Shown piece by piece: positions 3,866-36,678 of a stretch of DNA of 64,000 nucleotides. Within the stretch, counting starts at the first letter, position 1. Each line of letters starts with the position of its first letter. The DNA lies in NCBI GenBank assembly GCA_038141355.1, contig JAYQHX010000002.1, positions 613,073 to 677,072 on the forward strand. Direction: 5' to 3'. The notes below the pieces were generated by a model, which saw only the letters and a program-made list of their open reading frames with translations, did no database searches and had not been told where the DNA came from. Position numbers and translations under genes: made by a program. Source of the stretch: Methanobacteriota archaeon (GTDB taxonomy: Archaea; Thermoplasmatota; Poseidoniia; Poseidoniales; Poseidoniaceae).

Positions 3866-4147
3866 ATGCCTACGGTCGCAAAGGTTTGGATTGAAGAAGA
3901 CTGTATCACGTGTGATGCATGTCAGGACATTTTGCCGGAAGTTTTCGAGGTCACTGATGACACTAGCAAAATCAAGGCTGAAGTCAGGGAAGACGGCTCT
4001 TTTGACAGGAACATTAGCCATTCTGCAATCAAGGCAGAGTTTAGAGTTGAATACAGCGAACTAATCGAAGAAGCAGCAGATGCATGTCCGGTTGAAATTA
4101 TCAAATTTGAATACGATGGGGGCAGTAACTGCCGAAGCACCAGTTGA
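3866..4147 (+). CDS. Small single-cluster ferredoxin (3Fe-4S/4Fe-4S type). The start is 3827 or, more likely, the ATG at 3866.
   Basis: It has the motif CITCDAC near the N-terminus and a distal C-P (ADACPVEII), typical of single-cluster ferredoxins. Confidence 0.7.
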   Translation: MPTVAKVWIEEDCITCDACQDILPEVFEVTDDTSKIKAEVREDGSFDRNISHSAIKAEFRVEYSELIEEAADACPVEIIKFEYDGGSNCRSTS

Positions 4148-5831
4148 AGCAGCAACAGAGGAAGTAGCTCCAGCAGCAGTGGTTGCATCTGTACCGAGCG
4201 CCGATGATGGAGTTCTTGCTGAGTTATTATCGGGCGATAGAAGCCTTGCAGTATTCTTTGGCTCACAAACAGGCAATGCCGCAGGACTCGCTGAAAAGAC
4301 GGCAAAGAAAGCTGCATCATATGGCTTGGATGCAAAAGTAATCGACATGGATGGATACGACCCAGCAAGTTTTGCTTCCAACAAGAGAGTGCTAATTATT
4401 ACCTCAACATGGGGAGAAGGCGAAATGCCGGATAATGCTGATAATTTATGGAATCAGACAGTCAGTGCAAAACCTGCTCTAGGCGGAGTGCATTACTCGG
4501 TATGTGCAATTGGGGATTCTTCCTATGATGAATTCTGTAAGGCCGGAACAGACTGGGATGGCAAGTTTTCAGAACTTGGCGCTAAATCGATTCAAGCCAT
4601 TCAATTGTGTGACGTTGATTATGAGCCACCTTGGCAGATTTGGGTCAATGAAGTCCTTCCAAGAATTGCATGTGTAGATTCTTCAGGTACTTTCCAAGAA
4701 GAACTACTTGAAGCAATGATTGCGTATGGAGTAGGAGATGTTGATGATGGTGCTGACACGGGTGACTTCACCCCGGGCATGATTGAGCAGCCAAATCTTT
4801 CAATGACATTGAGAATTTTCAGATACGATCCAATCAAGGCAGAATCAGGATACGATACAGTTGCAGTAGTACTCCCAGGTCATGCAACTCTAGAAGATGC
4901 ATTGTTAGCAGTGAAAAGAGATGTAGATGGCTCACTTGCATTCAGGAGCGGCGGCTCATGTGGTCAAAATCCGCTAACTGGTGTAAAGGCGAACGGCAGA
5001 ATCTTGCCTGCTGATACAACAAGGGTATGCGATTTAGTCAGCGAAGGTGGAACCTTAACAATAGAACCACTTCCAGGTTATGAAGTTCTCAAAGACCTAA
5101 TGGTTTCATACGAAAGGTTTGATGTTGCAAGGTCGAATTCTAAGCCTTGGATGGTAGCCGACCCAAGACAAGGAGAAAAGTTGCCAAACGGCTCACCTAT
5201 GGGAGTTATGAGTTCTGACGAAGCAACTTTCCTTCACTCACTAGCGGATGTAGGCTCTCTTCAGTTGGTAAATTCCATGTCTGATACATTCGATATAAAC
5301 GACGAATACAGTGGTCCAGGCATTGCTTTACAAAGATGGGTCAGAAGCCAAGATTCTCGTGCCGGTGATTCTCATATCAAGCAAATGTATGAATTGATGC
5401 AAGGCAAAGGTGGAGTTTGGGACGAAGCCGATATTTCTTCTATTGCTCGCCATGGAATCGATGGCTCACAAGCAGCGGATTCACTTTATGCAGCAAGATC
5501 TAGGCTACTTGCCGAATTCAAATTCTCAGGTAAATCTGGAAGACTAGTAAAGAATTATTCAAGGTCTGTCAAAATGTCAGGTAATGTGAATGAAACCACA
5601 TTATATCGTTCAGTTCTAGGTCCACTCGGGCTCGGTTCAAACCTGTTGAACGGTGTTTCATTGCGTATGATGTTAGGATTTACAAGAAATGGTGGCCCAA
5701 TGATGAGAGGATTCCAAGGCATGTTGGTTCCGCCAGCCGGTATTGGGAAGATTCCGGATATGTTCAATTCAAAGATTCACAATCATCATGAAGTTGTAGC
5801 AATCTTCAACGAATTGGATAGTAGGTTTTAG
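4116..5831 (+). CDS. Flavodoxin domain fused to an SdhB/FrdB-like domain that lacks the Fe-S cysteine ligands. The start is uncertain (4080/4116, or a fusion to the upstream ferredoxin).
   Basis: The FMN loop VFFGSQTGNAAGLAEK is present. The SdhB-like blocks are LRIFRYDP, LEDALLAVKRDVDGSLAFRSGGSCGQN, IEPLPGYEVLKDLMVSYERF, YSGPGIALQRWVRSQDSR. Confidence 0.7.
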   Translation: MGAVTAEAPVEAATEEVAPAAVVASVPSADDGVLAELLSGDRSLAVFFGSQTGNAAGLAEKTAKKAASYGLDAKVIDMDGYDPASFASNKRVLIITSTWGEGEMPDNADNLWNQTVSAKPALGGVHYSVCAIGDSSYDEFCKAGTDWDGKFSELGAKSIQAIQLCDVDYEPPWQIWVNEVLPRIACVDSSGTFQEELLEAMIAYGVGDVDDGADTGDFTPGMIEQPNLSMTLRIFRYDPIKAESGYDTVAVVLPGHATLEDALLAVKRDVDGSLAFRSGGSCGQNPLTGVKANGRILPADTTRVCDLVSEGGTLTIEPLPGYEVLKDLMVSYERFDVARSNSKPWMVADPRQGEKLPNGSPMGVMSSDEATFLHSLADVGSLQLVNSMSDTFDINDEYSGPGIALQRWVRSQDSRAGDSHIKQMYELMQGKGGVWDEADISSIARHGIDGSQAADSLYAARSRLLAEFKFSGKSGRLVKNYSRSVKMSGNVNETTLYRSVLGPLGLGSNLLNGVSLRMMLGFTRNGGPMMRGFQGMLVPPAGIGKIPDMFNSKIHNHHEVVAIFNELDSRF

Positions 5832-6701
5832 GTGATTAAGGTGGTCAAATATTCGTATTATCCAGGAAATGTGGCAAGACAATCTTCTAGAGAAGTAGAA
5901 GATACAATTCAGCCCCTCTGTAAAACTCTTGGAATCGAATTGATTGAAATCGTTGGATATAGCAGTGATGGAGGAAATATCATCCGCCAAGGAAACAGAG
6001 ATTTACAACTAGCACTGAATGCTAGAAATTTGGCACTAGCACAAGAAAACGGTCATGATATTATCACACCATGTGCATCAGCACAAGGAATTCTCTATGA
6101 ATCACTGAAAACATTTAGAGAAGACCCAATTGCTCTTGCTAAAGCAAATACAGTTATTTCAAAAACATCTAATCTAAGTCTAAATGCTAACGAAATTAGT
6201 ACTAGTCATCTACTTCACGTATTGGTAGATGAAATTGGTCTAGATAAAATCGAAGCTGCGGTTGTCAATCCATTGGATATGGATATAGCGTGCTACTACG
6301 GTCCACACATGCAGAGGGATGGAGCCTGTGGTGCTGACGATGCATGGAATCCAACCTACATGGAACAATTGATCACTGCTCTTGGAGGCAGACCTGTAGA
6401 ATACTCCTCCAAATGTGCAAGTGTTGGAAATCCATCTCTGCTATCATTAGGAGATTCTGTCATGAAAATGACTGCTAGAGTACTAAATGACGCAAAGAAA
6501 GCTGGGGCGCAAGTACTAGTATCCGCATGTACTCTATCACATTCCAATCTTGATTCCTATCAAAGCAAAGCAGGTAGAGTTGCAGGAAAAGATACTAATT
6601 TGCCAGTTGTTAACCTAACAGAAATAATCGCATTCGCTTTAGGACATTTCACTGATAGATTTGCACAGTTGCGAACCAGAGCAGTAATCATTGGGTCTTG
6701 A
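5832..6701 (+). CDS. HdrB/SdhE-like protein with two degenerate CCG-type cysteine-rich domains. The likely start is the GTG at 5841, after an AGGTGA.
   Basis: It has the two-repeat architecture of CCG proteins (YSYYPGN..., GYSSDGG, ITPCASAQ; then ACYYGPHM, KCASVG, SACTLSHSNL). Most motif cysteines are substituted. Confidence 0.6.
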   Translation: MIKVVKYSYYPGNVARQSSREVEDTIQPLCKTLGIELIEIVGYSSDGGNIIRQGNRDLQLALNARNLALAQENGHDIITPCASAQGILYESLKTFREDPIALAKANTVISKTSNLSLNANEISTSHLLHVLVDEIGLDKIEAAVVNPLDMDIACYYGPHMQRDGACGADDAWNPTYMEQLITALGGRPVEYSSKCASVGNPSLLSLGDSVMKMTARVLNDAKKAGAQVLVSACTLSHSNLDSYQSKAGRVAGKDTNLPVVNLTEIIAFALGHFTDRFAQLRTRAVIIGS

Positions 6702-21903: not shown

Positions 21904-23865
21904 ATGGGCAAACAATCTATCCCTTGGGCAGTTGGATTAACTGGAATCCTGTACTTTGGAATGTTAATCTACTGGGAGTTTGAAGCATTCGAAGCAGCGT
22001 TAGGCCTAGGTGGGACTGCAAGCCAGAATGCAATTGACGGGGCTATTTTTGGTCTCGGAATGTCAATTGCCTATGTCGCTTACCTGATTCTTTGTTTCAC
22101 TAAAGATATGCCAGAAGGCCTCAAAGAGGTTCCAATTGTTGGAAGATATGGTAAATTGCTTGGTTGGCTTGCTTTCTTAGGTGTCGCAACCTACTACTGC
22201 CGTCCAAATGCTTGGGCGAATGGAACTCATGAAGACCTTGTAGGATACCTGTTGGTTGGAGTTATTCTCCTTGGTTTCGCTGCTTCTGCTGCACTCACAT
22301 GTTTCATGTACAGCGGCGATAAAAACAGCAGATTGTATGCTCTTCACAGGTTCGTCGATACATATCCTACAATTACAAAACCAGATCGACACGTTAGATT
22401 TAATGAAAAATTGTGGACTACAACTCTTGTTTTGATAATCTATTTCGCAATGACCAATGTCATGCTTTGGGGTCTATCTGGACAGGCACTTGACTTGTTC
22501 AGTGGTTTCAGGTCAATCATGGCTGGTGCTTCTGGTACAATCATGCACTTGGGAATTGGACCGATTGTTACTGGTTCGATTATCATGCAGTTATTCGCTG
22601 GTGCTAAAATCATCAAACTAGATTTAACCGACTCAAGAGATAAAGCAATGTATCAAGGTGTTCAGAAATTATTGGTTCTAATTATGATTCCAATTGAATC
22701 AATACCTCAAACATATGGTTTCTTGGATCCTATGCCAAACCTGGTTTCTACCTATGGTATGGGATGGGCTAACTTTGTAATCGTGGCTCAATTATTTGCT
22801 GGTTCTTATCTTGTATTCTTGCTTGACGAACTTGTGTCAAAGTGGGGTATCGGGTCAGGTATTTCCCTGTTTATCGCTGCGGGTGTAGCACAATCGACAT
22901 TCGTTGGAACTCTATCTCCTCTACCAACAACCACAGGTGTTGGGTACAGCATTCAAAACCCACCTTCTGGAACGCTTCCGATGATATTCTACATGTTTAG
23001 GGAGTCAACGAATAGCCAAATGATTTCTCAGAATGGTTTCGAAACGATTTTACTGACCCACGTTAATCCAGTAGTGGCTTTGTTCTCATCGGTTGTTGTA
23101 TTCTTGATTGTCGCATATGCGGAATCAAGTAAGTTGGAATTACCACTTACACACGGAAAGGTCAGAGGCCACCGTGGTAAGTATCCAATCCGATTGGTCT
23201 ATGCATCGAACATTCCGGTTATTTTGATGGCTGCTCTATTGGCAAACATCAACATGTTTACCCTGCTATTCTGGAACCACCCTACACTGCAGAAAACGCC
23301 TATCCTCGGTAAAGAAGGATGGGGTAGTATGTCCGAGTATATCGGTACCTATGAACCAGGTTCATCTACGCCTAGTGGAGGTTTCGCATGGTACTCTTCA
23401 ATGGTTAACGGTGTAAACGATTGGCTGATACCACTATTGAATCAACAGGGAGATATCTATGGGCACTCATTATGGCAGATAGGTGGTCACGTATTCTTCT
23501 ATGTCACATTGATGACAGTAGGTTCTATGGTCTTCGCTAAGTTCTGGATCGATACCACAAACATGGGTTCGAAAGATGTTGCAAAACAAATTGAGAGAAC
23601 AGGAATGCAAATTCCTGGATTCAGAAAGAACCCTCTAGTTCTTGAGAGAATCCTTGAGAGATATATTCCACCAATAACCTACTTCTCAGGGGCTTTCGTA
23701 GGATTGTTAGCTGCTGGAGCAGACTTACTTGGAACGGTCGGAAACGCAACCGGAACGGGTCTGTTGCTAGCCGTAGGTATCATTCTAAGGACATACGAAC
23801 AGATCCAAAAAGAGCAAGCTATGGAAATGCATCCAATGTTAAGGCAGTTCTTCGGCGCTGAGTGA
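21904..23865 (+). CDS. secY: Preprotein translocase SecY with a ~145-aa N-terminal membrane extension
   Basis: From about residue 150 the sequence is canonical archaeal SecY (KPDRHVRFNEKLWTT, LGIGPIVTGSIIMQL, YGIGSGISLFIAAGV, GKYPIRLVYASNIPVIL, IPGFRK). At 653 aa it is longer than the roughly 450-490 aa I recall as typical. Confidence 0.92.
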   Translation: MGKQSIPWAVGLTGILYFGMLIYWEFEAFEAALGLGGTASQNAIDGAIFGLGMSIAYVAYLILCFTKDMPEGLKEVPIVGRYGKLLGWLAFLGVATYYCRPNAWANGTHEDLVGYLLVGVILLGFAASAALTCFMYSGDKNSRLYALHRFVDTYPTITKPDRHVRFNEKLWTTTLVLIIYFAMTNVMLWGLSGQALDLFSGFRSIMAGASGTIMHLGIGPIVTGSIIMQLFAGAKIIKLDLTDSRDKAMYQGVQKLLVLIMIPIESIPQTYGFLDPMPNLVSTYGMGWANFVIVAQLFAGSYLVFLLDELVSKWGIGSGISLFIAAGVAQSTFVGTLSPLPTTTGVGYSIQNPPSGTLPMIFYMFRESTNSQMISQNGFETILLTHVNPVVALFSSVVVFLIVAYAESSKLELPLTHGKVRGHRGKYPIRLVYASNIPVILMAALLANINMFTLLFWNHPTLQKTPILGKEGWGSMSEYIGTYEPGSSTPSGGFAWYSSMVNGVNDWLIPLLNQQGDIYGHSLWQIGGHVFFYVTLMTVGSMVFAKFWIDTTNMGSKDVAKQIERTGMQIPGFRKNPLVLERILERYIPPITYFSGAFVGLLAAGADLLGTVGNATGTGLLLAVGIILRTYEQIQKEQAMEMHPMLRQFFGAE

Positions 23866-24349: not shown

Positions 24350-25817
<1,468 letters not shown>

Positions 25818-25827
25818 AAGAAAACCC

Positions 25828-25864
25828 GGAAGCGGGGGACTTCGGTCCCCGTTTCCACTTTTTT
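25828..25864 (+). terminator. Hairpin with a UUCG loop followed by T6, immediately after the 16S 3' end
   Basis: ggaagcgggggac-ttcg-gtccccgtttcc (25828-25856) is followed by tttttt at 25859-25864. The convergent minus-strand gene ends at 25895. Confidence 0.6.
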
Positions 25865-25894: not shown

Positions 25895-28627
25895 TTACTT
25901 TTCATCGACGTACCAATATTTCTTGTTAGGCGATAATGGGCGCTTCATCCATAGAGGCCTTCTTTCACCTCGTGGATGGGTTTCTCTTTCTTTAGCCCAA
26001 GAATTCCACTTCTTGTAATATTCATGAGACTTATTCGTATCAACTTCTACGTCACCATATTCTTCGCCTTCCGCTGGAAGAGACAACTTGACTTTTTGCA
26101 ACCAGCAATGAGCTCCACTAATTGGATCTGGTTGAACAGCATGTGTGATGTTTTGATGTACACCGCCATCTCTCCAGAATAGGCGGTTTGTATCAGGGTC
26201 ATTTGATTCAAATGGTGTTACTCCTTCTATAGTCCTCATTCTCCATTTGCCATCGCCTCTGTCTTCAATAGACACTGTATTGGTCATCATGCGATTTCCA
26301 GCATCTTGTTTTCTTCTCCAGCGGCCAATGTGGTGAGAACATCCCACGATACCAGGTTTAATCGCCTCAGTCACCCAGACTTTATCGATAAACCAGCCAA
26401 TTTCCGTTTCAATTTTGATTAATCCTCCCTCAGTCACACCTAGTTTTTTGGCATCTGATGGATGGAGCCAAATAGGATTTTTATGTGCGATTTCCACCAG
26501 CCATTTTGCGTTAGCTGACCTCGAGTGTATATGCATTGGCAGTCTGAAATTCGGCAGCAAGCAGAATTCGTTTTCCCCAGTCAAATTTTCTGGGTGGACA
26601 TGAGATTTTATTTTGTAATGTGGTATTGCGTGTTCGGGATAACCGAATTCAATCATCGTAGGCGAATAGAATTCTTGTTTCCCTGAAGGAGTTGGCCATC
26701 CTTCTTTTTCGTATTTTTTATATGTACTTTCTTCAATCAAAAAAGCACCGTGTCTTCTCATGTATTCTAACTCGGAGAGTTCTTCTTCCTTGGCTTTCTC
26801 AGTTAAACCAGGTACTCTCTCAAAGATGTACTGATAGTAATCATCGAGATTCATAGTATCTCCATCTCTGTATGGTGACATGAAATATTGCTTGATTCCT
26901 AGGCTTCCATCAGGATCTATTCTAAGGCTCAGTTCATTCCAGAACTCGTCTTCTTCCCAGACTTCTCCAGGGTTTACCTCGTGAGTGAATTCTACTTCCT
27001 TGCCTTGTCTTCTTTGGAACTCTCGCAAAACCGGTTGTCTGAATGCAACCCACTTCCCTGATGAAGTCGCGTATGAGTTGATATCGTGCCTTTCGCTTGC
27101 GTGTCCCATAGGAATAACGTAATCTGCAAAGAATGCAGTCTCGTTCCAAGTCGGAGTCATTGCGATATGGCATCCGACCGCTTCTTCGTTTTGCAACATT
27201 TCAATCCACGAAAAGCCATCCGGATAAGTCCAAACCGGATTAAACACCCTCGTAAAATAAACATCCATAGTTCCTCTTCCTTCCTTAACAAGATGTGGAA
27301 GAATATGGCTCATTTCGAAATGAGCAAGAGTATATTCCGGTGGGAAATGCAATTCATTCCAGCCTTCCGGAGCCGGAGGCTCATTTGGCAATTCAGGCTT
27401 GAATTTTGACCATGAATTAGGTGCAGTGCCACCTTCAGTTCCAACTGAACCGGTTAGTACATTTAGGAAATGGAGACTTCTAGAGACCTGCCATCCACCT
27501 AAATTGCCGATAGATGCAGCCCTCCATACGTGTGATGATAATCTACTTCCAGCATTTGCGACGATTCTTCCAGTTTCGATGACCTGTTCTACAGGAATTC
27601 TGCATTCTTTTGATGCGAATTCAGGAGTATATTGAGCATATTCTTGTTTCAGGATTCCTATGAAGTTGTCAAAAGTTTCCTCTGAATTTGGATGAACTTC
27701 TTGTAAGTACTGTTGCCAATTTACTTGTGTTTCCATGAATTCTCTATCATATAGCCCTTCATCCAAGATAATCTTGGCCCAACTCAGGAAAAGTGCAGTT
27801 TCACTACCTGGCCAGGTTGGAATCCAGTGGTCAGCCATAGATGCAGTGTTAGATAGTCTAGGGTCAACAACAATCAATTTAGCGCCATCCATCATTCCTT
27901 CGAGAATTCTTTGTGCGTGAGGATTGAAGTAATGACCGGTTTCAAGGTGAGATGAACATAGTAGGATTACCTTTGCATTACTATGGTCGGGACTTGGTCT
28001 GTCATGGTGATGCCAGATTGCATAACCTGTTCTAGCTCCTGCACTACATATGTTGGTATGTGAATTATGTCCGTCTACTCCCCACGCTTTGAGTACACGA
28101 TTCGTATACCCTTCATGACCAGGTCTTCCAACGTGGTAAACTACTCTATCTCGAGCGCCAGTTTCTAGCGATGCTCTGATTTTGTTTGCTATATCATCGA
28201 GAACTTCTTCCCAAGAAACTCTCTCCCAGCCACCTTCACCTCTTTTTCCAACTCGCTTTAGCGGGTAAAGAATTCTCTCAGTATCATTAATTTGGTTAAT
28301 TGTAGCAGGTCCTTTAGCACAGTTTCTTCCTCTACTTCCGGGGTGGTTAGGATTTCCCTCAAAACGAGACACTTCGCCGGTTTCTTTATCTACATATGCT
28401 AGTAAACCACATGCGGATTCACAATTAAAACAAGTAGTAGGGACCAAGGAGAAGTTTCTTTCAACCTGCTTGGGCCATGCTTGAGCATCTAGTTCTGTGT
28501 GATTATCCCAATCATCCATGGTTGGGTATTTTCTCAAAGGCCCATCTGCGCCTTTGTGAGGCTTTTTATCGATATTTGGAATAATTCGCAATTTCTGTGC
28601 TATATTTTCAATAAATGTCCTTGCCAT
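25895..28627 (-). CDS. Molybdopterin (bis-MGD) oxidoreductase catalytic subunit, DMSO-reductase superfamily (Psr/Phs/Ttr-like). The substrate is unknown.
   Basis: 910 aa with the N-terminal 4Fe-4S motif CFNCESAC...RNCAKG and a candidate Mo-ligand Cys in HTNICSAGARTG. No RR twin-arginine motif is visible. GAGGTGA lies upstream. Confidence 0.85.
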   Translation of the reverse strand: MARTFIENIAQKLRIIPNIDKKPHKGADGPLRKYPTMDDWDNHTELDAQAWPKQVERNFSLVPTTCFNCESACGLLAYVDKETGEVSRFEGNPNHPGSRGRNCAKGPATINQINDTERILYPLKRVGKRGEGGWERVSWEEVLDDIANKIRASLETGARDRVVYHVGRPGHEGYTNRVLKAWGVDGHNSHTNICSAGARTGYAIWHHHDRPSPDHSNAKVILLCSSHLETGHYFNPHAQRILEGMMDGAKLIVVDPRLSNTASMADHWIPTWPGSETALFLSWAKIILDEGLYDREFMETQVNWQQYLQEVHPNSEETFDNFIGILKQEYAQYTPEFASKECRIPVEQVIETGRIVANAGSRLSSHVWRAASIGNLGGWQVSRSLHFLNVLTGSVGTEGGTAPNSWSKFKPELPNEPPAPEGWNELHFPPEYTLAHFEMSHILPHLVKEGRGTMDVYFTRVFNPVWTYPDGFSWIEMLQNEEAVGCHIAMTPTWNETAFFADYVIPMGHASERHDINSYATSSGKWVAFRQPVLREFQRRQGKEVEFTHEVNPGEVWEEDEFWNELSLRIDPDGSLGIKQYFMSPYRDGDTMNLDDYYQYIFERVPGLTEKAKEEELSELEYMRRHGAFLIEESTYKKYEKEGWPTPSGKQEFYSPTMIEFGYPEHAIPHYKIKSHVHPENLTGENEFCLLPNFRLPMHIHSRSANAKWLVEIAHKNPIWLHPSDAKKLGVTEGGLIKIETEIGWFIDKVWVTEAIKPGIVGCSHHIGRWRRKQDAGNRMMTNTVSIEDRGDGKWRMRTIEGVTPFESNDPDTNRLFWRDGGVHQNITHAVQPDPISGAHCWLQKVKLSLPAEGEEYGDVEVDTNKSHEYYKKWNSWAKERETHPRGERRPLWMKRPLSPNKKYWYVDEK

Positions 28628-28636
28628 AAAATCACC

Positions 28637-30046
28637 TCACAACAATGGCTCCAATTGAGGTCTTTCAATAACGTGATGCCCATGGACTAGAATAATTATC
28701 AAACCGATAATTCCAGTCATTATAGGTAATAGTCCGCCAACGATTATCGCTAGAGTAGCACCGCCAATTAAGGCGGTCTCGATTAAAAATTTGAGGGGAA
28801 GTAATCTATCTTTAGACCACGATCGTCCCTTTGCTTGCTGTAGCAACCAAGCGGTGTAGACACCGGTTAATGCTGCAATTGGTATTCCTGCGTAAGCCAA
28901 GTATTTCAGATAAGTTTCATCTAAATCCAGTATAACTACTGCGAGAGATACCGCTAGAATTCCACCGTATGCTGCAAGAATATATGCTCCTTTTACAAGC
29001 CAAGAATTCCAATTGGGTCGTAGCATCACATACAGGAATCGTTCAGGTCTATCTAAGTCCTTGATTAGAAGTAATCCAGTTATAGTCATGAAACCTAATC
29101 CAACTCCTATGACTGGAATCCATAATTCGTCCATATTAGGTAAATATCCTGTGAGCCACATAATCATAGCAACCATGTATGTTCCTGCTGCAATTCCTTT
29201 GGTCCAGATGTATGCGCTGACTTCCCATCCCCATAGAATACCTTTGGATGGTGCATCGTATGCTCTCTTCGCATTCGGTGAGTTGTCAGCTAATTTTTGA
29301 GCAACGTCACGAATTATTGCTTGGTCTCGAGGATTTGCATCTTTTGCTTTCATCTCCAAGGCTAATTGAACTAGCATTGAGTGTTCATCGGCAGCTCCCA
29401 TCCTTTCGCTGGCATATTTTGCATAATGTCCAACACCTGCTGCTTGTTCATTCCACATTCCTTCAGCGGTTTTATCAGTGGCTAGAGGATTTAACATATC
29501 GTCAGATGTATCTAGATAGAATACATTTGGTATAGTTCCAGCTTCGGGCTTACGAACCTTTGTTTCATTTTCTGAAATTAGAATTGACAGATTAGAGGTT
29601 TCATCATCTAAATCTCCACTAACAATTGCTTCAACTGGACAAACAATTACGCAAGCAGGTTCATACGAATTTTCGATTCTATGTGCACAATAATTACACT
29701 TTGCGGCAGTACCTGAATCTGGATTGATGTATAGAGCGTCATATGGACATGCTTGCATGCAAGATTTACATCCAATACATCTGTCATCGTCGAAATCTAC
29801 AATTCCATCATCTCTTGTGAATAGGGCTGTTGTTGGACAAATTGTCGTGCATGGTGCATCTTCACAGTGATTACATCTATGAACACTAAATTCTCGATTC
29901 GAATTTGGATATTCTCCAGTTTCGATATATTTTACGTGAGTTCTATTTACTCCGACAGGAACATCATGCTCAGATTTACAGGCAACTGTACAGGCGTGAC
30001 ATCCAATACATTTTCTGTTATCGATGGCAAAGCCATAATTTACCAT
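28637..30046 (-). CDS. Fusion of a four-cluster 4Fe-4S ferredoxin subunit (DmsB/PsrB/NrfC-like) to a polytopic NrfD/PsrC-like membrane domain
   Basis: Four Cys groups are present (CIGCHACTVAC, CNHCEDAPCTTICP, CIGCKSCMQACP, CNYC...CVIVCP). A ~100-aa linker follows, then about 5-6 hydrophobic helices beginning with WGWEVSAYIWTKGIAAG. Confidence 0.8.
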   Translation of the reverse strand: MVNYGFAIDNRKCIGCHACTVACKSEHDVPVGVNRTHVKYIETGEYPNSNREFSVHRCNHCEDAPCTTICPTTALFTRDDGIVDFDDDRCIGCKSCMQACPYDALYINPDSGTAAKCNYCAHRIENSYEPACVIVCPVEAIVSGDLDDETSNLSILISENETKVRKPEAGTIPNVFYLDTSDDMLNPLATDKTAEGMWNEQAAGVGHYAKYASERMGAADEHSMLVQLALEMKAKDANPRDQAIIRDVAQKLADNSPNAKRAYDAPSKGILWGWEVSAYIWTKGIAAGTYMVAMIMWLTGYLPNMDELWIPVIGVGLGFMTITGLLLIKDLDRPERFLYVMLRPNWNSWLVKGAYILAAYGGILAVSLAVVILDLDETYLKYLAYAGIPIAALTGVYTAWLLQQAKGRSWSKDRLLPLKFLIETALIGGATLAIIVGGLLPIMTGIIGLIIILVHGHHVIERPQLEPLL

Positions 30047-35340: not shown

Positions 35341-36678
35341 ATGGAGATTAGTGAAATTGACCTAGATGGTGGCACATTCAAATTTACATTGCCTTATCAT
35401 TGGATTAGTTGGATATTGTGGGTGCTTGGACTATTGATGACTCTTGTAAGCATCTTCGCTTTCCTTGGAGGAGGTGGGGAGACGCTGTTGCTTGGAACAT
35501 TTGGATTATTGCTTATGGCATTTGCATCTCCGGGCTCTCTCGAGGGTCAATTGAAGAAAGTTAGAGAGAATGCAATCGACCCAGCAGAACTTGAAGCAAA
35601 GGCTGAAGCAAGTGGATTAACTGTAGATAGTTGGTTGATGCAACAAACAACATATGTTCCAACCAATGACCCAAATGATTGGATTCTTCCTGCACCAGGT
35701 CCTTCAACTTGGAACAATGAAGATAGATATGGGCCACACGGTGATGGTTCTGCACTTGCTGAGCACCCAACTAAAGTTGGTACTCCAAGACCTTCTACAA
35801 TGACCTCATTTACGGTATTCTCGGTATTGTCTGTGTTATTCGCACTTGTTGGAGTTGCTTCTTTGATGTCAAGTCAAGAATCTGGAAATTCAATGATTAT
35901 GCCAGCAATTATTATCGTAGTAGGTCTGATTTTGTCGCTTGTCGGTTATTTCAGGTCAAAGATGCTTAGCCAAATGATGGACACTCCAACATCTCTTGTG
36001 AGGTCAGCACCGGTAGGATATCCCGAATTAGTGGGCCAAGTTAGGCCGATTGCAGATGGATGTCTTACTGTAGTAGTCGATGGAAATCAGAACATGGTAA
36101 TGCATAACATGGTTGGATACAGATGGGAATATGAACAATACCAGTGTAGAACTGTAAAAACTGATAACGGTACTAGAGAAGAATGTAATTGGGTGACCAT
36201 ACGCTCAGATGCAGGGGGTTGTCCTTTCATTTTACATGACGGTACTGGAGGAATTAGAGTAAATGCACAATCATTCAAGAGATCAAATTACGGCCAATAC
36301 TTGAAACGCTGGGATGGTGCCTTCGCTCAAACTCTTGGAAAACAATTGATGGCATCTGCTGTAGCGGGACTGCTTGGTGGCGCAACGGTAAAGAAACACC
36401 GCTGGACCCTTTATGGTCTAAAACTAGGGAATCCTGTGTATGTATTAGGTGAAACTAAACCACGTCCTTCTGGGCAAATAACCGCAGAAGGATTAGATGG
36501 CACCTTAGGAAATAGCATAATCGAAGTCTGGGGTAATGAAGATGCACCAGGAGTAAAGGTCACACTTCAAAGAGGAACCGAGTTGTCCAATGTCGGAGGT
36601 TCTAGGTCTGGATTTGAAATGCTATTTCCTCCATTGATGTTAATGCTGGGAGGAATCGCTCTCCTCGGATTAGCGTGA
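35341..36678 (+). CDS. Membrane protein with a possible GIDE-like domain between TM segments
   Basis: There are two N-terminal TM helices, two central TM helices, a soluble domain (PELVGQVRP...CPFILHDGTGGIRV...GNPVYVLGE) and a C-terminal TM helix. Confidence 0.45.
   Translation: MEISEIDLDGGTFKFTLPYHWISWILWVLGLLMTLVSIFAFLGGGGETLLLGTFGLLLMAFASPGSLEGQLKKVRENAIDPAELEAKAEASGLTVDSWLMQQTTYVPTNDPNDWILPAPGPSTWNNEDRYGPHGDGSALAEHPTKVGTPRPSTMTSFTVFSVLSVLFALVGVASLMSSQESGNSMIMPAIIIVVGLILSLVGYFRSKMLSQMMDTPTSLVRSAPVGYPELVGQVRPIADGCLTVVVDGNQNMVMHNMVGYRWEYEQYQCRTVKTDNGTREECNWVTIRSDAGGCPFILHDGTGGIRVNAQSFKRSNYGQYLKRWDGAFAQTLGKQLMASAVAGLLGGATVKKHRWTLYGLKLGNPVYVLGETKPRPSGQITAEGLDGTLGNSIIEVWGNEDAPGVKVTLQRGTELSNVGGSRSGFEMLFPPLMLMLGGIALLGLA

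Follow-up and report, generated by a model that had tools for sequence, protein, structure and literature searches.

The stretch of DNA analyzed here, which we call the window, comprises 64,000 nucleotides (nt) of contig JAYQHX010000002.1 from an archaeon of Marine Group II (MGII, Poseidoniales), and it carries on its minus strand a two-gene operon for a membrane-bound molybdopterin oxidoreductase. The upstream gene (28637..30046(-), 469 amino acids (aa)) is a psrBC-type fusion, recognized from its open reading frame (ORF) and from Pfam matches to Fer4_11 and NrfD. The downstream gene (25895..28627(-), 910 aa) encodes a psrA-type catalytic subunit, for which the ORF and a three-domain Pfam architecture indicate a molybdenum or tungsten bis-pyranopterin guanosine dinucleotide (Mo/W-bisPGD) cofactor and the FS0 iron-sulfur (FeS) cluster. 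We refer to the two products as BC and A. The TGA stop of the BC gene and the ATG of the A gene are separated by 9 nt (GGTGATTTT, 28628..28636(-)), in which direct reading finds a Shine-Dalgarno-like GGTGA, and the longer string GAGGTGA overlaps the stop codon itself. A first-pass annotation, made from the letters of the window, had described this operon with its 9-nt gap and GAGGTGA site; the ORF list returned the same coordinates and the spacer could be read directly. The annotation had also set the operon beside the 16S gene, and an archaeal small-subunit (SSU, 16S) ribosomal RNA (rRNA) gene does lie at 24350-25817(+), convergent with the A gene and 77 nt from its stop codon.

Subunit A has the composition of a bis-molybdopterin guanine dinucleotide enzyme. 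Pfam places Molybdop_Fe4S4 at residues 61-114, Molybdopterin at 118-519 and Molydop_binding at 693-781. The cysteines of the FS0 [4Fe-4S] motif (C66-x2-C69-x3-C73...C103, 28319..28432(-)), which the Molybdop_Fe4S4 match covers, are invariant in our alignment. The predicted molybdenum ligand is Cys194 in the motif HTNICSAG (codon at 28046..28048(-)); it aligns with the Mo-ligand cysteine of the Cys-type formate dehydrogenase FdhA (9vap_A), and it stands about 20 residues before the segment of A that aligns to PsrA residues 194-240, near Cys173 of PsrA. The catalytic subunit with a cysteine ligand that had been read from the sequence is thus borne out by the domains, the invariant cysteines and the aligned ligand. 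The best match in the PDB was Thermus PsrA (2vpw_A, 1.4e-38), followed by ArrA. No NCBIfam model reached its own cut-off against A: PhsA (PRK15488) scored 188 bits against a cut-off of 694, DmsA/YnfE scored 188 against 778, and narG scored 31 bits. The DmsA/YnfE and DmsB models gave partial matches only.

The BC protein consists of three parts. Its B domain (aa 1-180, 29507..30046(-)), defined by Pfam, by a PDB match and by alignments, holds four [4Fe-4S] clusters and has no signal peptide; Fer4_11 covers residues 53-145, the best PDB sequence match is PsrB (2vpw_B, E=1.6e-48), and 16 cysteines are invariant in the family alignments (C13/16/19/23, C58/61/66/70, C90/93/96/100 and C117/120/132/136). 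The AlphaFold2 (AF2) model of this domain was poor, with a predicted local distance difference test (pLDDT) score below 50. A linker of about 90 aa follows (aa 181-267, 29246..29506(-)), modeled with low pLDDT and marked by the motifs WxxQxxGVGH and RxYDxPxKG in invariant alignment columns. The remainder is a membrane domain (aa 268-469, 28637..29245(-)), modeled at pLDDT 85-95 as an NrfD/PsrC-type quinone anchor with six transmembrane (TM) helices, at residues 268-299, 309-330, 349-372, 377-403, 416-436 and 439-464, and a short amphipathic helix at 334-342. The motif WGWEVSAYIWTKGIAAG at the start of TM1 is near-invariant across the family. The prediction of a four-cluster domain joined through a linker to a five- or six-helix NrfD/PsrC-like domain therefore held, with six helices in the model.

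This anchor is shorter than expected. NrfD-like anchors have 8-10 TM helices arranged as two four-helix bundles (Calisto & Pereira 2021), a number that the six helices modeled here do not reach. The Pfam NrfD match (residues 268-436) spans only profile positions 7-194 of 313, and the alignment columns of TM7-8 hold 4-5 residues in all 12 MGII sequences versus 61-70 in all 64 others, including Natrinema and Chlorobium. The C-terminal PQxEPL tail is kept in MGII anchors despite the absence of TM7-8. Searched alone against the PDB with phmmer, the membrane domain gave no match, and its link to PsrC and ActC comes from the fold search only: Foldseek returned PsrC of Thermus polysulfide reductase (2vpw_C, at probability 1.0 and a target TM-score of 0.53) and also ActC (6lod_C). 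Since what is left of the anchor still folds like PsrC and ActC, the MGII anchor is, on the structural model, a truncated member of the NrfD family. For comparison with 28637-29245(-) of the window, L001:6333-7943 and L003:6346-7971 were used.

The pair belongs to a family that has been described before. Wright et al. 2014 (PMC3906813) studied fosmids of Marine Group A (Marinimicrobia) and reported genes in psrBCA order, with psrB and psrC fused and with a PsrA that lacks a twin-arginine translocation (Tat) signal and was predicted to be cytoplasmic; they state that this format and fusion recur on MGII fosmids and in green sulfur bacteria, Haladaptatus and Caldilinea, and that the Marine Group A proteins have their nearest counterparts in MGII. 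The PSRLC3 system of green sulfur bacteria (Frigaard & Bryant 2008; Gregersen et al. 2011) is cited as two genes that are inferred to encode a sulfite oxidase. The layout and ancestry that mark psrBCA/PSRLC3 are present in the window: two genes, one a BC fusion and the other PsrA-like, no signal peptide, and orthology. Like psrBCA/PSRLC3, the window has BC before A and a Tat-less, predicted-cytoplasmic PsrA-like subunit, and they form one clade. We equated the Chlorobium orthologues with PSRLC3 by architecture and identity. Publications of 2008-2014 thus already contain the Tat-less, BC-fused psrBCA layout, its occurrence on MGII fosmids and its connection with Marinimicrobia and green sulfur bacteria, and all three features flagged in the first-pass annotation had been described for the same family and taxon. 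Specifically, the B-C fusion and the BC-then-A order, which it called atypical, are both real but already published for this family, MGII included, and the enzyme falls in a described but biochemically uncharacterized clade of the same topology. The window differs from its psrBCA/PSRLC3 relatives in two respects: the MGII anchor lacks TM7-8, and this copy is detached from the genes for TusA, DsrE2, the rhodanese-metallo-beta-lactamase fusion (Rhd-MBL) and TauE and lies beside the 16S gene instead.

We surveyed the distribution of the fusion, and it is wide. At least 593 GTDB species carry the family, counted as confirmed matches in a pattern scan of species representatives from many phyla, and a BC fusion of 467-498 aa is present in all 120 of the MGII clusters listed. 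Homologues of A at 62-68% identity occur in Marinimicrobia (66-68% over the full length) and Lewinellaceae. Those at 53-57% are found in haloarchaea, Thermomicrobium roseum, Rhodococcus jostii RHA1 and Flavobacteriaceae, and also in Planctomycetota, Acidobacteriota, Chloroflexota and Chlorobium; in Chlorobium sp. N1 and two Chlorobiaceae metagenome-assembled genomes (MAGs), A is 56-57% identical over its full length with the same architecture. Enough upstream sequence was available at 72 loci. At 69 of these, BC is a single ORF upstream of A on the same strand (adjacent in 66, with a 2-kb insert in 3); the other 3 have no BC nearby, and an assembly gap intervenes in one of the three. None of the 72 has B and C as split genes, an arrangement that would have implied a missed stop or frameshift in the window. 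With single-ORF fusions in 69 loci and in all the MGII clusters listed, a frameshift artefact is ruled out. Catalytic genes without a BC within 8 kb upstream were seen on a 1.1-Mb bacterial contig (L026) and in a Pyrinomonadaceae MAG (L083).

We computed a bootstrapped neighbor-joining tree of A from 757 columns, without authenticated SoeA, TtrA or PsrA sequences. The family was monophyletic (77%), as was MGII within it (100%), with Marinimicrobia as the sister group of MGII (100%) and Natrinema separately nested among bacteria. Among the closest outgroups, some proteins bear a Tat signal and others do not; outside the family fell PhsA, a Tat-less Burkholderia A-B-C operon and DmsA, the last being the most distant. 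A single MGII clade that is sister to Marinimicrobia points to an old horizontal transfer. The GC content of the operon (0.40-0.43) is the same as that of its flanks, so that composition shows no sign of recent transfer, which argues that the transfer into MGII is old. The MGII ancestor would have gained the cluster from a Marinimicrobia-like bacterium and then lost TM7-8 of the anchor; in the window's lineage, only BC-A would have been retained and relocated beside the 16S gene.

The absence of an export signal was examined in several ways. We looked for a twin-arginine (RR) motif and a hydrophobic stretch in A and at the N-terminus of BC and found neither; the maximum 19-residue hydropathy of A is 1.1. 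Our ORF listing gives the longest possible ORFs, each opened by the earliest start codon that follows a stop, and because both ORFs are already maximal, no upstream extension of BC or A is possible. In the in-frame region upstream of FS0, no Tat-like motif was present at any of the 70 family loci with a complete N-terminus. A Tat signal reached through an upstream start or a frameshift is therefore ruled out, and the first-pass annotation, which had seen no Tat or Sec signal on either protein and had named a corrected upstream start as the way such a signal might surface, was right on this point.

Loop charges provide an independent check on its further prediction of a cytoplasm-facing catalytic site. 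In seven members of the family, the loops on the side where the FeS domain docks carry 7-10 lysines and arginines (K+R) versus 0-1 on the opposite loops. The separate NrfD proteins of the Tat-dependent Azoarcus and Sulfurovum operons show the reversed bias (2 versus 2-9). The FeS domain precedes helix 1 in the same chain, fused to its N-terminus, and no signal is present, so that the docking face must be cytoplasmic. Absent signals, together with loop charges inverted relative to Tat-exported relatives, thus support an enzyme that faces the cytoplasm, as judged from sequence features.

The N-terminus of A probably retains a vestige of a Tat signal. In a MAFFT alignment of N-termini, the segment MARTFIENIAQKL of the first 20 residues (MARTFIENIAQKLRIIPNID, 28568..28627(-)), containing ARTFIE, lies under the RRxFLK of the nearest Tat-bearing outgroups, with the hydrophobic h-region deleted. 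The consensus across the family is [KA]R[ST][FW]IE[KN], in the form KRSWIEK in bacteria, and A shares its N-terminal 'YPPxExW' region with the nearest Tat-bearing outgroups (P0290, P0343 and P0308). NarGHI, a cytoplasm-facing complex iron-sulfur molybdoenzyme, reportedly has a remnant Tat signal too. It resembles the window in that its non-exported catalytic subunit keeps a degenerate Tat-like N-terminus, but its ligand is Asp, its anchor is the dihaem cytochrome b NarI instead of NrfD, and it is phylogenetically remote. By this alignment, the N-terminus of A is probably a vestigial signal of the NarG kind, and the remnant possibly serves as a chaperone-binding site.

Two Tat-dependent operons, in Azoarcus sp. 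KH32C (pAZKH) and Sulfurovum mangrovi, have the same B, NrfD, A gene order as the window. Unlike the window, they have a canonical RRxFLK on A (the Azoarcus subunit begins MEFPKITRRTFLK), unfused B and C genes and a TorD-family chaperone, and identity is 30-44%. These loci (L013 4245-9405 in Azoarcus, L015 in Sulfurovum) form a Tat-dependent sister group and encode extra FeS proteins besides the chaperone. The order B-C-A is also that of ttrBCA.

Among characterized enzymes, we compared BC-A with SoeABC. SoeABC of Allochromatium vinosum and Aquifex aeolicus (Dahl et al. 2013; Boughanemi et al. 2020) is a cytoplasm-facing sulfite:quinone oxidoreductase whose NrfD-like anchor is predicted to be inverted (PMC8076601). 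[quoted passage not shown] It differs in having three separate genes in the order A-B-C and an 8-TM SoeC, where the window has a fused gene, the order BC-A and 6 TM helices. In our tree, SoeA was represented by a surrogate, the unauthenticated Burkholderia A-B-C operon, which is unannotated and generically named and came from a plasmid tblastn search; Sulfitobacter plasmid matches were rejected as SoeA because they are formate dehydrogenases. BC-A is not SoeABC as that system is defined, since its genes are fused, their order is different, the anchor has 6 TM helices and there is no affinity to the Soe-like surrogate. Wells et al. 2023 had only 5 archaeal bSreA/SoeA matches, and the MGII proteins are therefore not classed there.

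Psr/Phs and Dms do not include BC-A either. PsrABC (Thermus thermophilus 2VPZ; Wolinella succinogenes) and PhsABC provide the best solved-structure matches for A, B and C and have the same cofactors. However, these enzymes are Tat-exported and periplasm-facing, their B and C genes are unfused, the order is A-B-C and PsrC has 8 TM helices; identity to A is only about 24-25%, and the charge bias of the window's loops is the opposite of theirs. FqoABC of Calisto & Pereira (CT0494), considered as a candidate for the same complex, is described with three subunits, FdnGH-like A and B and an 8-TM anchor.

The first-pass annotation had stated that the substrate cannot be read from the sequence. For the window alone this is correct, but it no longer holds once the conserved gene neighborhoods of relatives are counted. 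We took gene context from close relatives of the window's A and detected neighbors by BLAST with a limited query set. Three MGII lineages have, on one strand, genes for an ArsR-type regulator, TusA, a DsrE2-like protein, Rhd-MBL (380-384 aa), BC and A, with TauE first or last (L098:7974-15330, L101:7967-15334 and L106:8895-16177), and these full clusters are collinear with Marinimicrobia L001. The remaining MGII variants are Rhd-MBL-BC-A, BC-A-TauE and bare BC-A, the last in several species; the 16S-adjacent arrangement is limited to the window's own lineage, and homology between the window and other MGII loci ends exactly at the borders of BC-A. Marinimicrobia have the gene order of the full MGII cluster and then two DASS anion carriers. 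Neighbors in other groups are SulP carriers, rhodaneses and MBL-rhodanese fusions in Lewinellaceae; three MBL-fold genes, thioredoxin, ArsR, DsrE, TusA and Mrp/NBP35 in Rhodococcus jostii; rhodanese-MBL, a TauE/SafE sulfite exporter, Mrp and MobA in Natrinema; a CsoR-type regulator in Thermomicrobium roseum; and DsrE2 and TusA downstream of BC-A in Chlorobium. The DsrE2 neighbor scores above its NCBIfam cut-off, and the MBL neighbors resemble glyoxalase II and Blh-type persulfide dioxygenases at scores below the curated cut-offs. Across 80 scan loci, an MBL(-rhodanese) gene was near BC-A in 23, SulP in 21 and at least one sulfur-linked gene in 36. The common theme of these neighborhoods is cytoplasmic sulfane-sulfur handling, followed by an oxyanion step and export. 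The conservation of TusA, DsrE2, rhodanese-MBL, TauE and SulP around BC-A in other MGII and in bacteria narrows the substrate to sulfur compounds. In our literature search, no account of a cluster for sulfur oxidation in MGII was found.

Our favored reading, to which we give a probability of about one half, is that BC-A is a membrane-bound, cytoplasm-facing complex iron-sulfur molybdoenzyme of the psrBCA/PSRLC3 type that acts as a cytoplasmic sulfite:quinone oxidoreductase. The same BC-A module accompanies two different generators of sulfite: green sulfur bacteria use rDsr, whereas aerobes have an O2-dependent enzyme of the dioxygenase type. Sulfite:quinone oxidoreduction is favored because BC-A is kept with both of these generators, because PSRLC3 has been assigned this role, and because SoeABC provides a precedent. 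The anatomy, the lack of export signals, the inverted charge bias, the conservation under purifying selection, the orthology with the Chlorobium and Marinimicrobia operons and the gene neighborhoods are shown by the data; we infer what BC-A acts on, which way electrons flow and that they are coupled to quinone. In the proposed mechanism, the Tat-less A, with Mo-bisPGD on Cys194 and FS0, and the four-cluster B domain would both be located in the cytoplasm, where sulfite would be oxidized to sulfate and two electrons would pass from FS0 through FS1-4 to quinone and into the aerobic respiratory chain. Sulfite could come from persulfide oxidation by the persulfide-dioxygenase-like rhodanese-MBL of other MGII, or from organosulfur catabolism, and sulfate or sulfite could leave through TauE, SulP or DASS-type carriers. 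On energetic grounds, a quinone-reducing dehydrogenase on the N-side would add to a redox loop, while a quinol-oxidizing reductase on that side would conserve nothing.

Several observations weigh against this assignment. No sulfur gene was found in the window's 64 kb, and about half of the 80 scan loci have no detected sulfur neighbor. The nearest characterized relatives by sequence are polysulfide/thiosulfate and arsenate reductases, not a sulfite dehydrogenase, and the Soe-like, Tat-less Burkholderia operon lies outside the family with 27% identity over the N-terminal third. Family members bear only generic names in public records, such as molybdopterin oxidoreductase, formate dehydrogenase or polysulfide reductase, and we found no paper with a purification or knockout of any family member. 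Because TusA, DsrE2 and rhodanese carry sulfane sulfur, persulfide, polysulfide or thiosulfate would fit nearly as well as sulfite.

The strongest alternative, which we consider unlikely though worth weighing, is that the enzyme faces the cytoplasm but has sulfane sulfur or thiosulfate, supplied by these carriers, as its substrate: it would be a persulfide/polysulfide reductase releasing H2S, a sulfide/persulfide:quinone oxidoreductase working in the oxidative direction, as Wright et al. 2014 read it, or a thiosulfate-cleaving or -oxidizing enzyme. Rhodanese-dioxygenase fusions of the CstB/Blh type can produce thiosulfate, which counts in its favor. So do the sulfane-sulfur carriers next to BC-A and the identity of the closest solved or named relatives, Thermus PsrA/PsrB and PhsA, and in Wright et al. 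2014 (PMC3906813) the proposal was that polysulfide is reduced or sulfide oxidized. However, a quinol-driven reductase facing the cytoplasm saves no energy, and many carriers of the family are aerobes (MGII of the surface ocean, Flavobacteriaceae, Rhodococcus), where it adjoins an O2-dependent dioxygenase-type gene. A sulfane-sulfur substrate would also leave the oxyanion carriers TauE, SulP and DASS unexplained, and in Chlorobium sulfane sulfur goes to rDsr, with the literature giving PSRLC3 the missing cytoplasmic sulfite step.

Much less probable is an anaerobic respiratory reductase for dimethyl sulfoxide (DMSO) or another oxyanion, N-oxide or S-oxide, used in low-oxygen particles. Pereira et al. 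2019, citing Martin-Cuadrado 2008, saw an MGII molybdopterin oxidoreductase with a 4Fe-4S protein as possible DMSO respiration, and the partial matches to the DmsA/YnfE and DmsB models point the same way. Those scores are far under their cut-offs, however, and the Mo-ligand position holds Cys where DmsA enzymes use Ser (table in PMC10100899). In addition, Pfam identifies the anchor as NrfD rather than DmsC, and no DmsD/TorD chaperone gene lies nearby. DMSO respiration is thus unlikely, given the Cys ligand, the low DmsA score, the remote position of DmsA in the tree, the lack of a Tat signal and the sulfur-related neighbors.

That the bare BC-A of the window's lineage is a decaying or redundant remnant, or its fusion an assembly or frameshift artefact, is largely refuted and scarcely credible: every partner gene is missing from the 64 kb and homology to full-cluster MGII loci stops at the BC-A borders, but dN/dS (the ratio of nonsynonymous to synonymous substitution rates) between the window and L006, of the same 16S-adjacent lineage, is 0.011 for A and 0.020 for BC at a dS above 1, every cofactor-binding Cys is intact, the bare arrangement recurs in several MGII species, and the fusion is shared by 69 of 72 loci across many phyla. 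These low dN/dS values mean that BC-A is maintained under strong purifying selection in the bare, 16S-adjacent lineage.

Five elements of this analysis are new, each of them incremental: the conserved TauE/ArsR/TusA/DsrE2/Rhd-MBL context within MGII; the loss of TM7-8 that is specific to MGII and breaks the rule of 8-10 TM helices; the evidence from charge bias for an inverted orientation; the probable vestigial Tat motif; and the breadth of the family. If BC-A is a sulfite:quinone oxidoreductase, the MGII genes would no longer be read as anaerobic respiration of DMSO or polysulfide but as an aerobic supplement to energy supply, driven by sulfur, in a group that is among the most abundant archaea of the surface ocean. 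In sediment MAGs, persulfide dioxygenase was found in about 39% and potential sulfite-oxidizing enzymes in about 12% (PMC12345210), a gap between the two counts that would close under the same assignment. More tentatively, we suggest that MGII run a full cytoplasmic sulfur oxidation derived from Marinimicrobia-like bacteria, with carriage by TusA and DsrE2, sulfite formation by Rhd-MBL and oxidation to sulfate by BC-A through a six-helix, non-pumping anchor, and that the BC-A family is the 'missing' sulfite dehydrogenase of heterotrophs. Were this so, heterotrophs with a persulfide dioxygenase but no known sulfite oxidizer would gain one, from a family as broad as that counted above. Its function is directly testable in cultured carriers, namely Rhodococcus jostii RHA1 (RHA1_RS43840/43835), Thermomicrobium roseum (TRD_RS12035/12030), Lutibacter (L. 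aestuarii), Natrinema (N. caseinilyticum, NJT13_RS21505/21500) and Chlorobium.

The remaining contents of the window identify its host and include some unusual genes. Thermosome, a ribosomal protein cluster, SecY, carbamoyl-phosphate synthase and class I LysRS mark Marine Group II, and the nearest homologues bear the names Poseidonia, Poseidoniaceae or Thalassarchaeaceae. The host being an archaeon, a sigma-70 promoter scan of the region was uninformative. Upstream of BC-A lie two phosphoribosyltransferases and a xanthine/uracil permease; downstream lies the 16S gene. In the 77-nt gap just 3' of that gene, at 25828-25856(+), is a strong GC-rich hairpin of 11 pairs followed by a T-run. The 16S gene is solitary, with no 23S, 5S or tRNA gene detected in the 64-kb window, and because neither a 23S nor a 5S gene was detected there, the rRNA genes appear to be unlinked.

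At 21904-23865(+), the SecY ORF is 653 aa long; its Plug and SecY domains begin at residue 178, and the SecY match is spread over 420 residues. Either the protein has a long N-terminal extension with insertions or the ORF call is over-long. A gene at 4080-5831(+) fuses a flavodoxin domain to an SdhB-like 2Fe-2S (Fer2_3) domain, an unusual pairing with the next gene (5832-6701(+)), which directly follows it and encodes a CCG (cysteine-rich, HdrB/SdhE-like) protein; papers on MGII label this pair 'sulfite reductase flavoprotein' and 'succinate dehydrogenase subunit'. Finally, a 445-aa ORF at 35341-36678(+) has no Pfam match and is conserved in the related MGII contigs L006 and L008.

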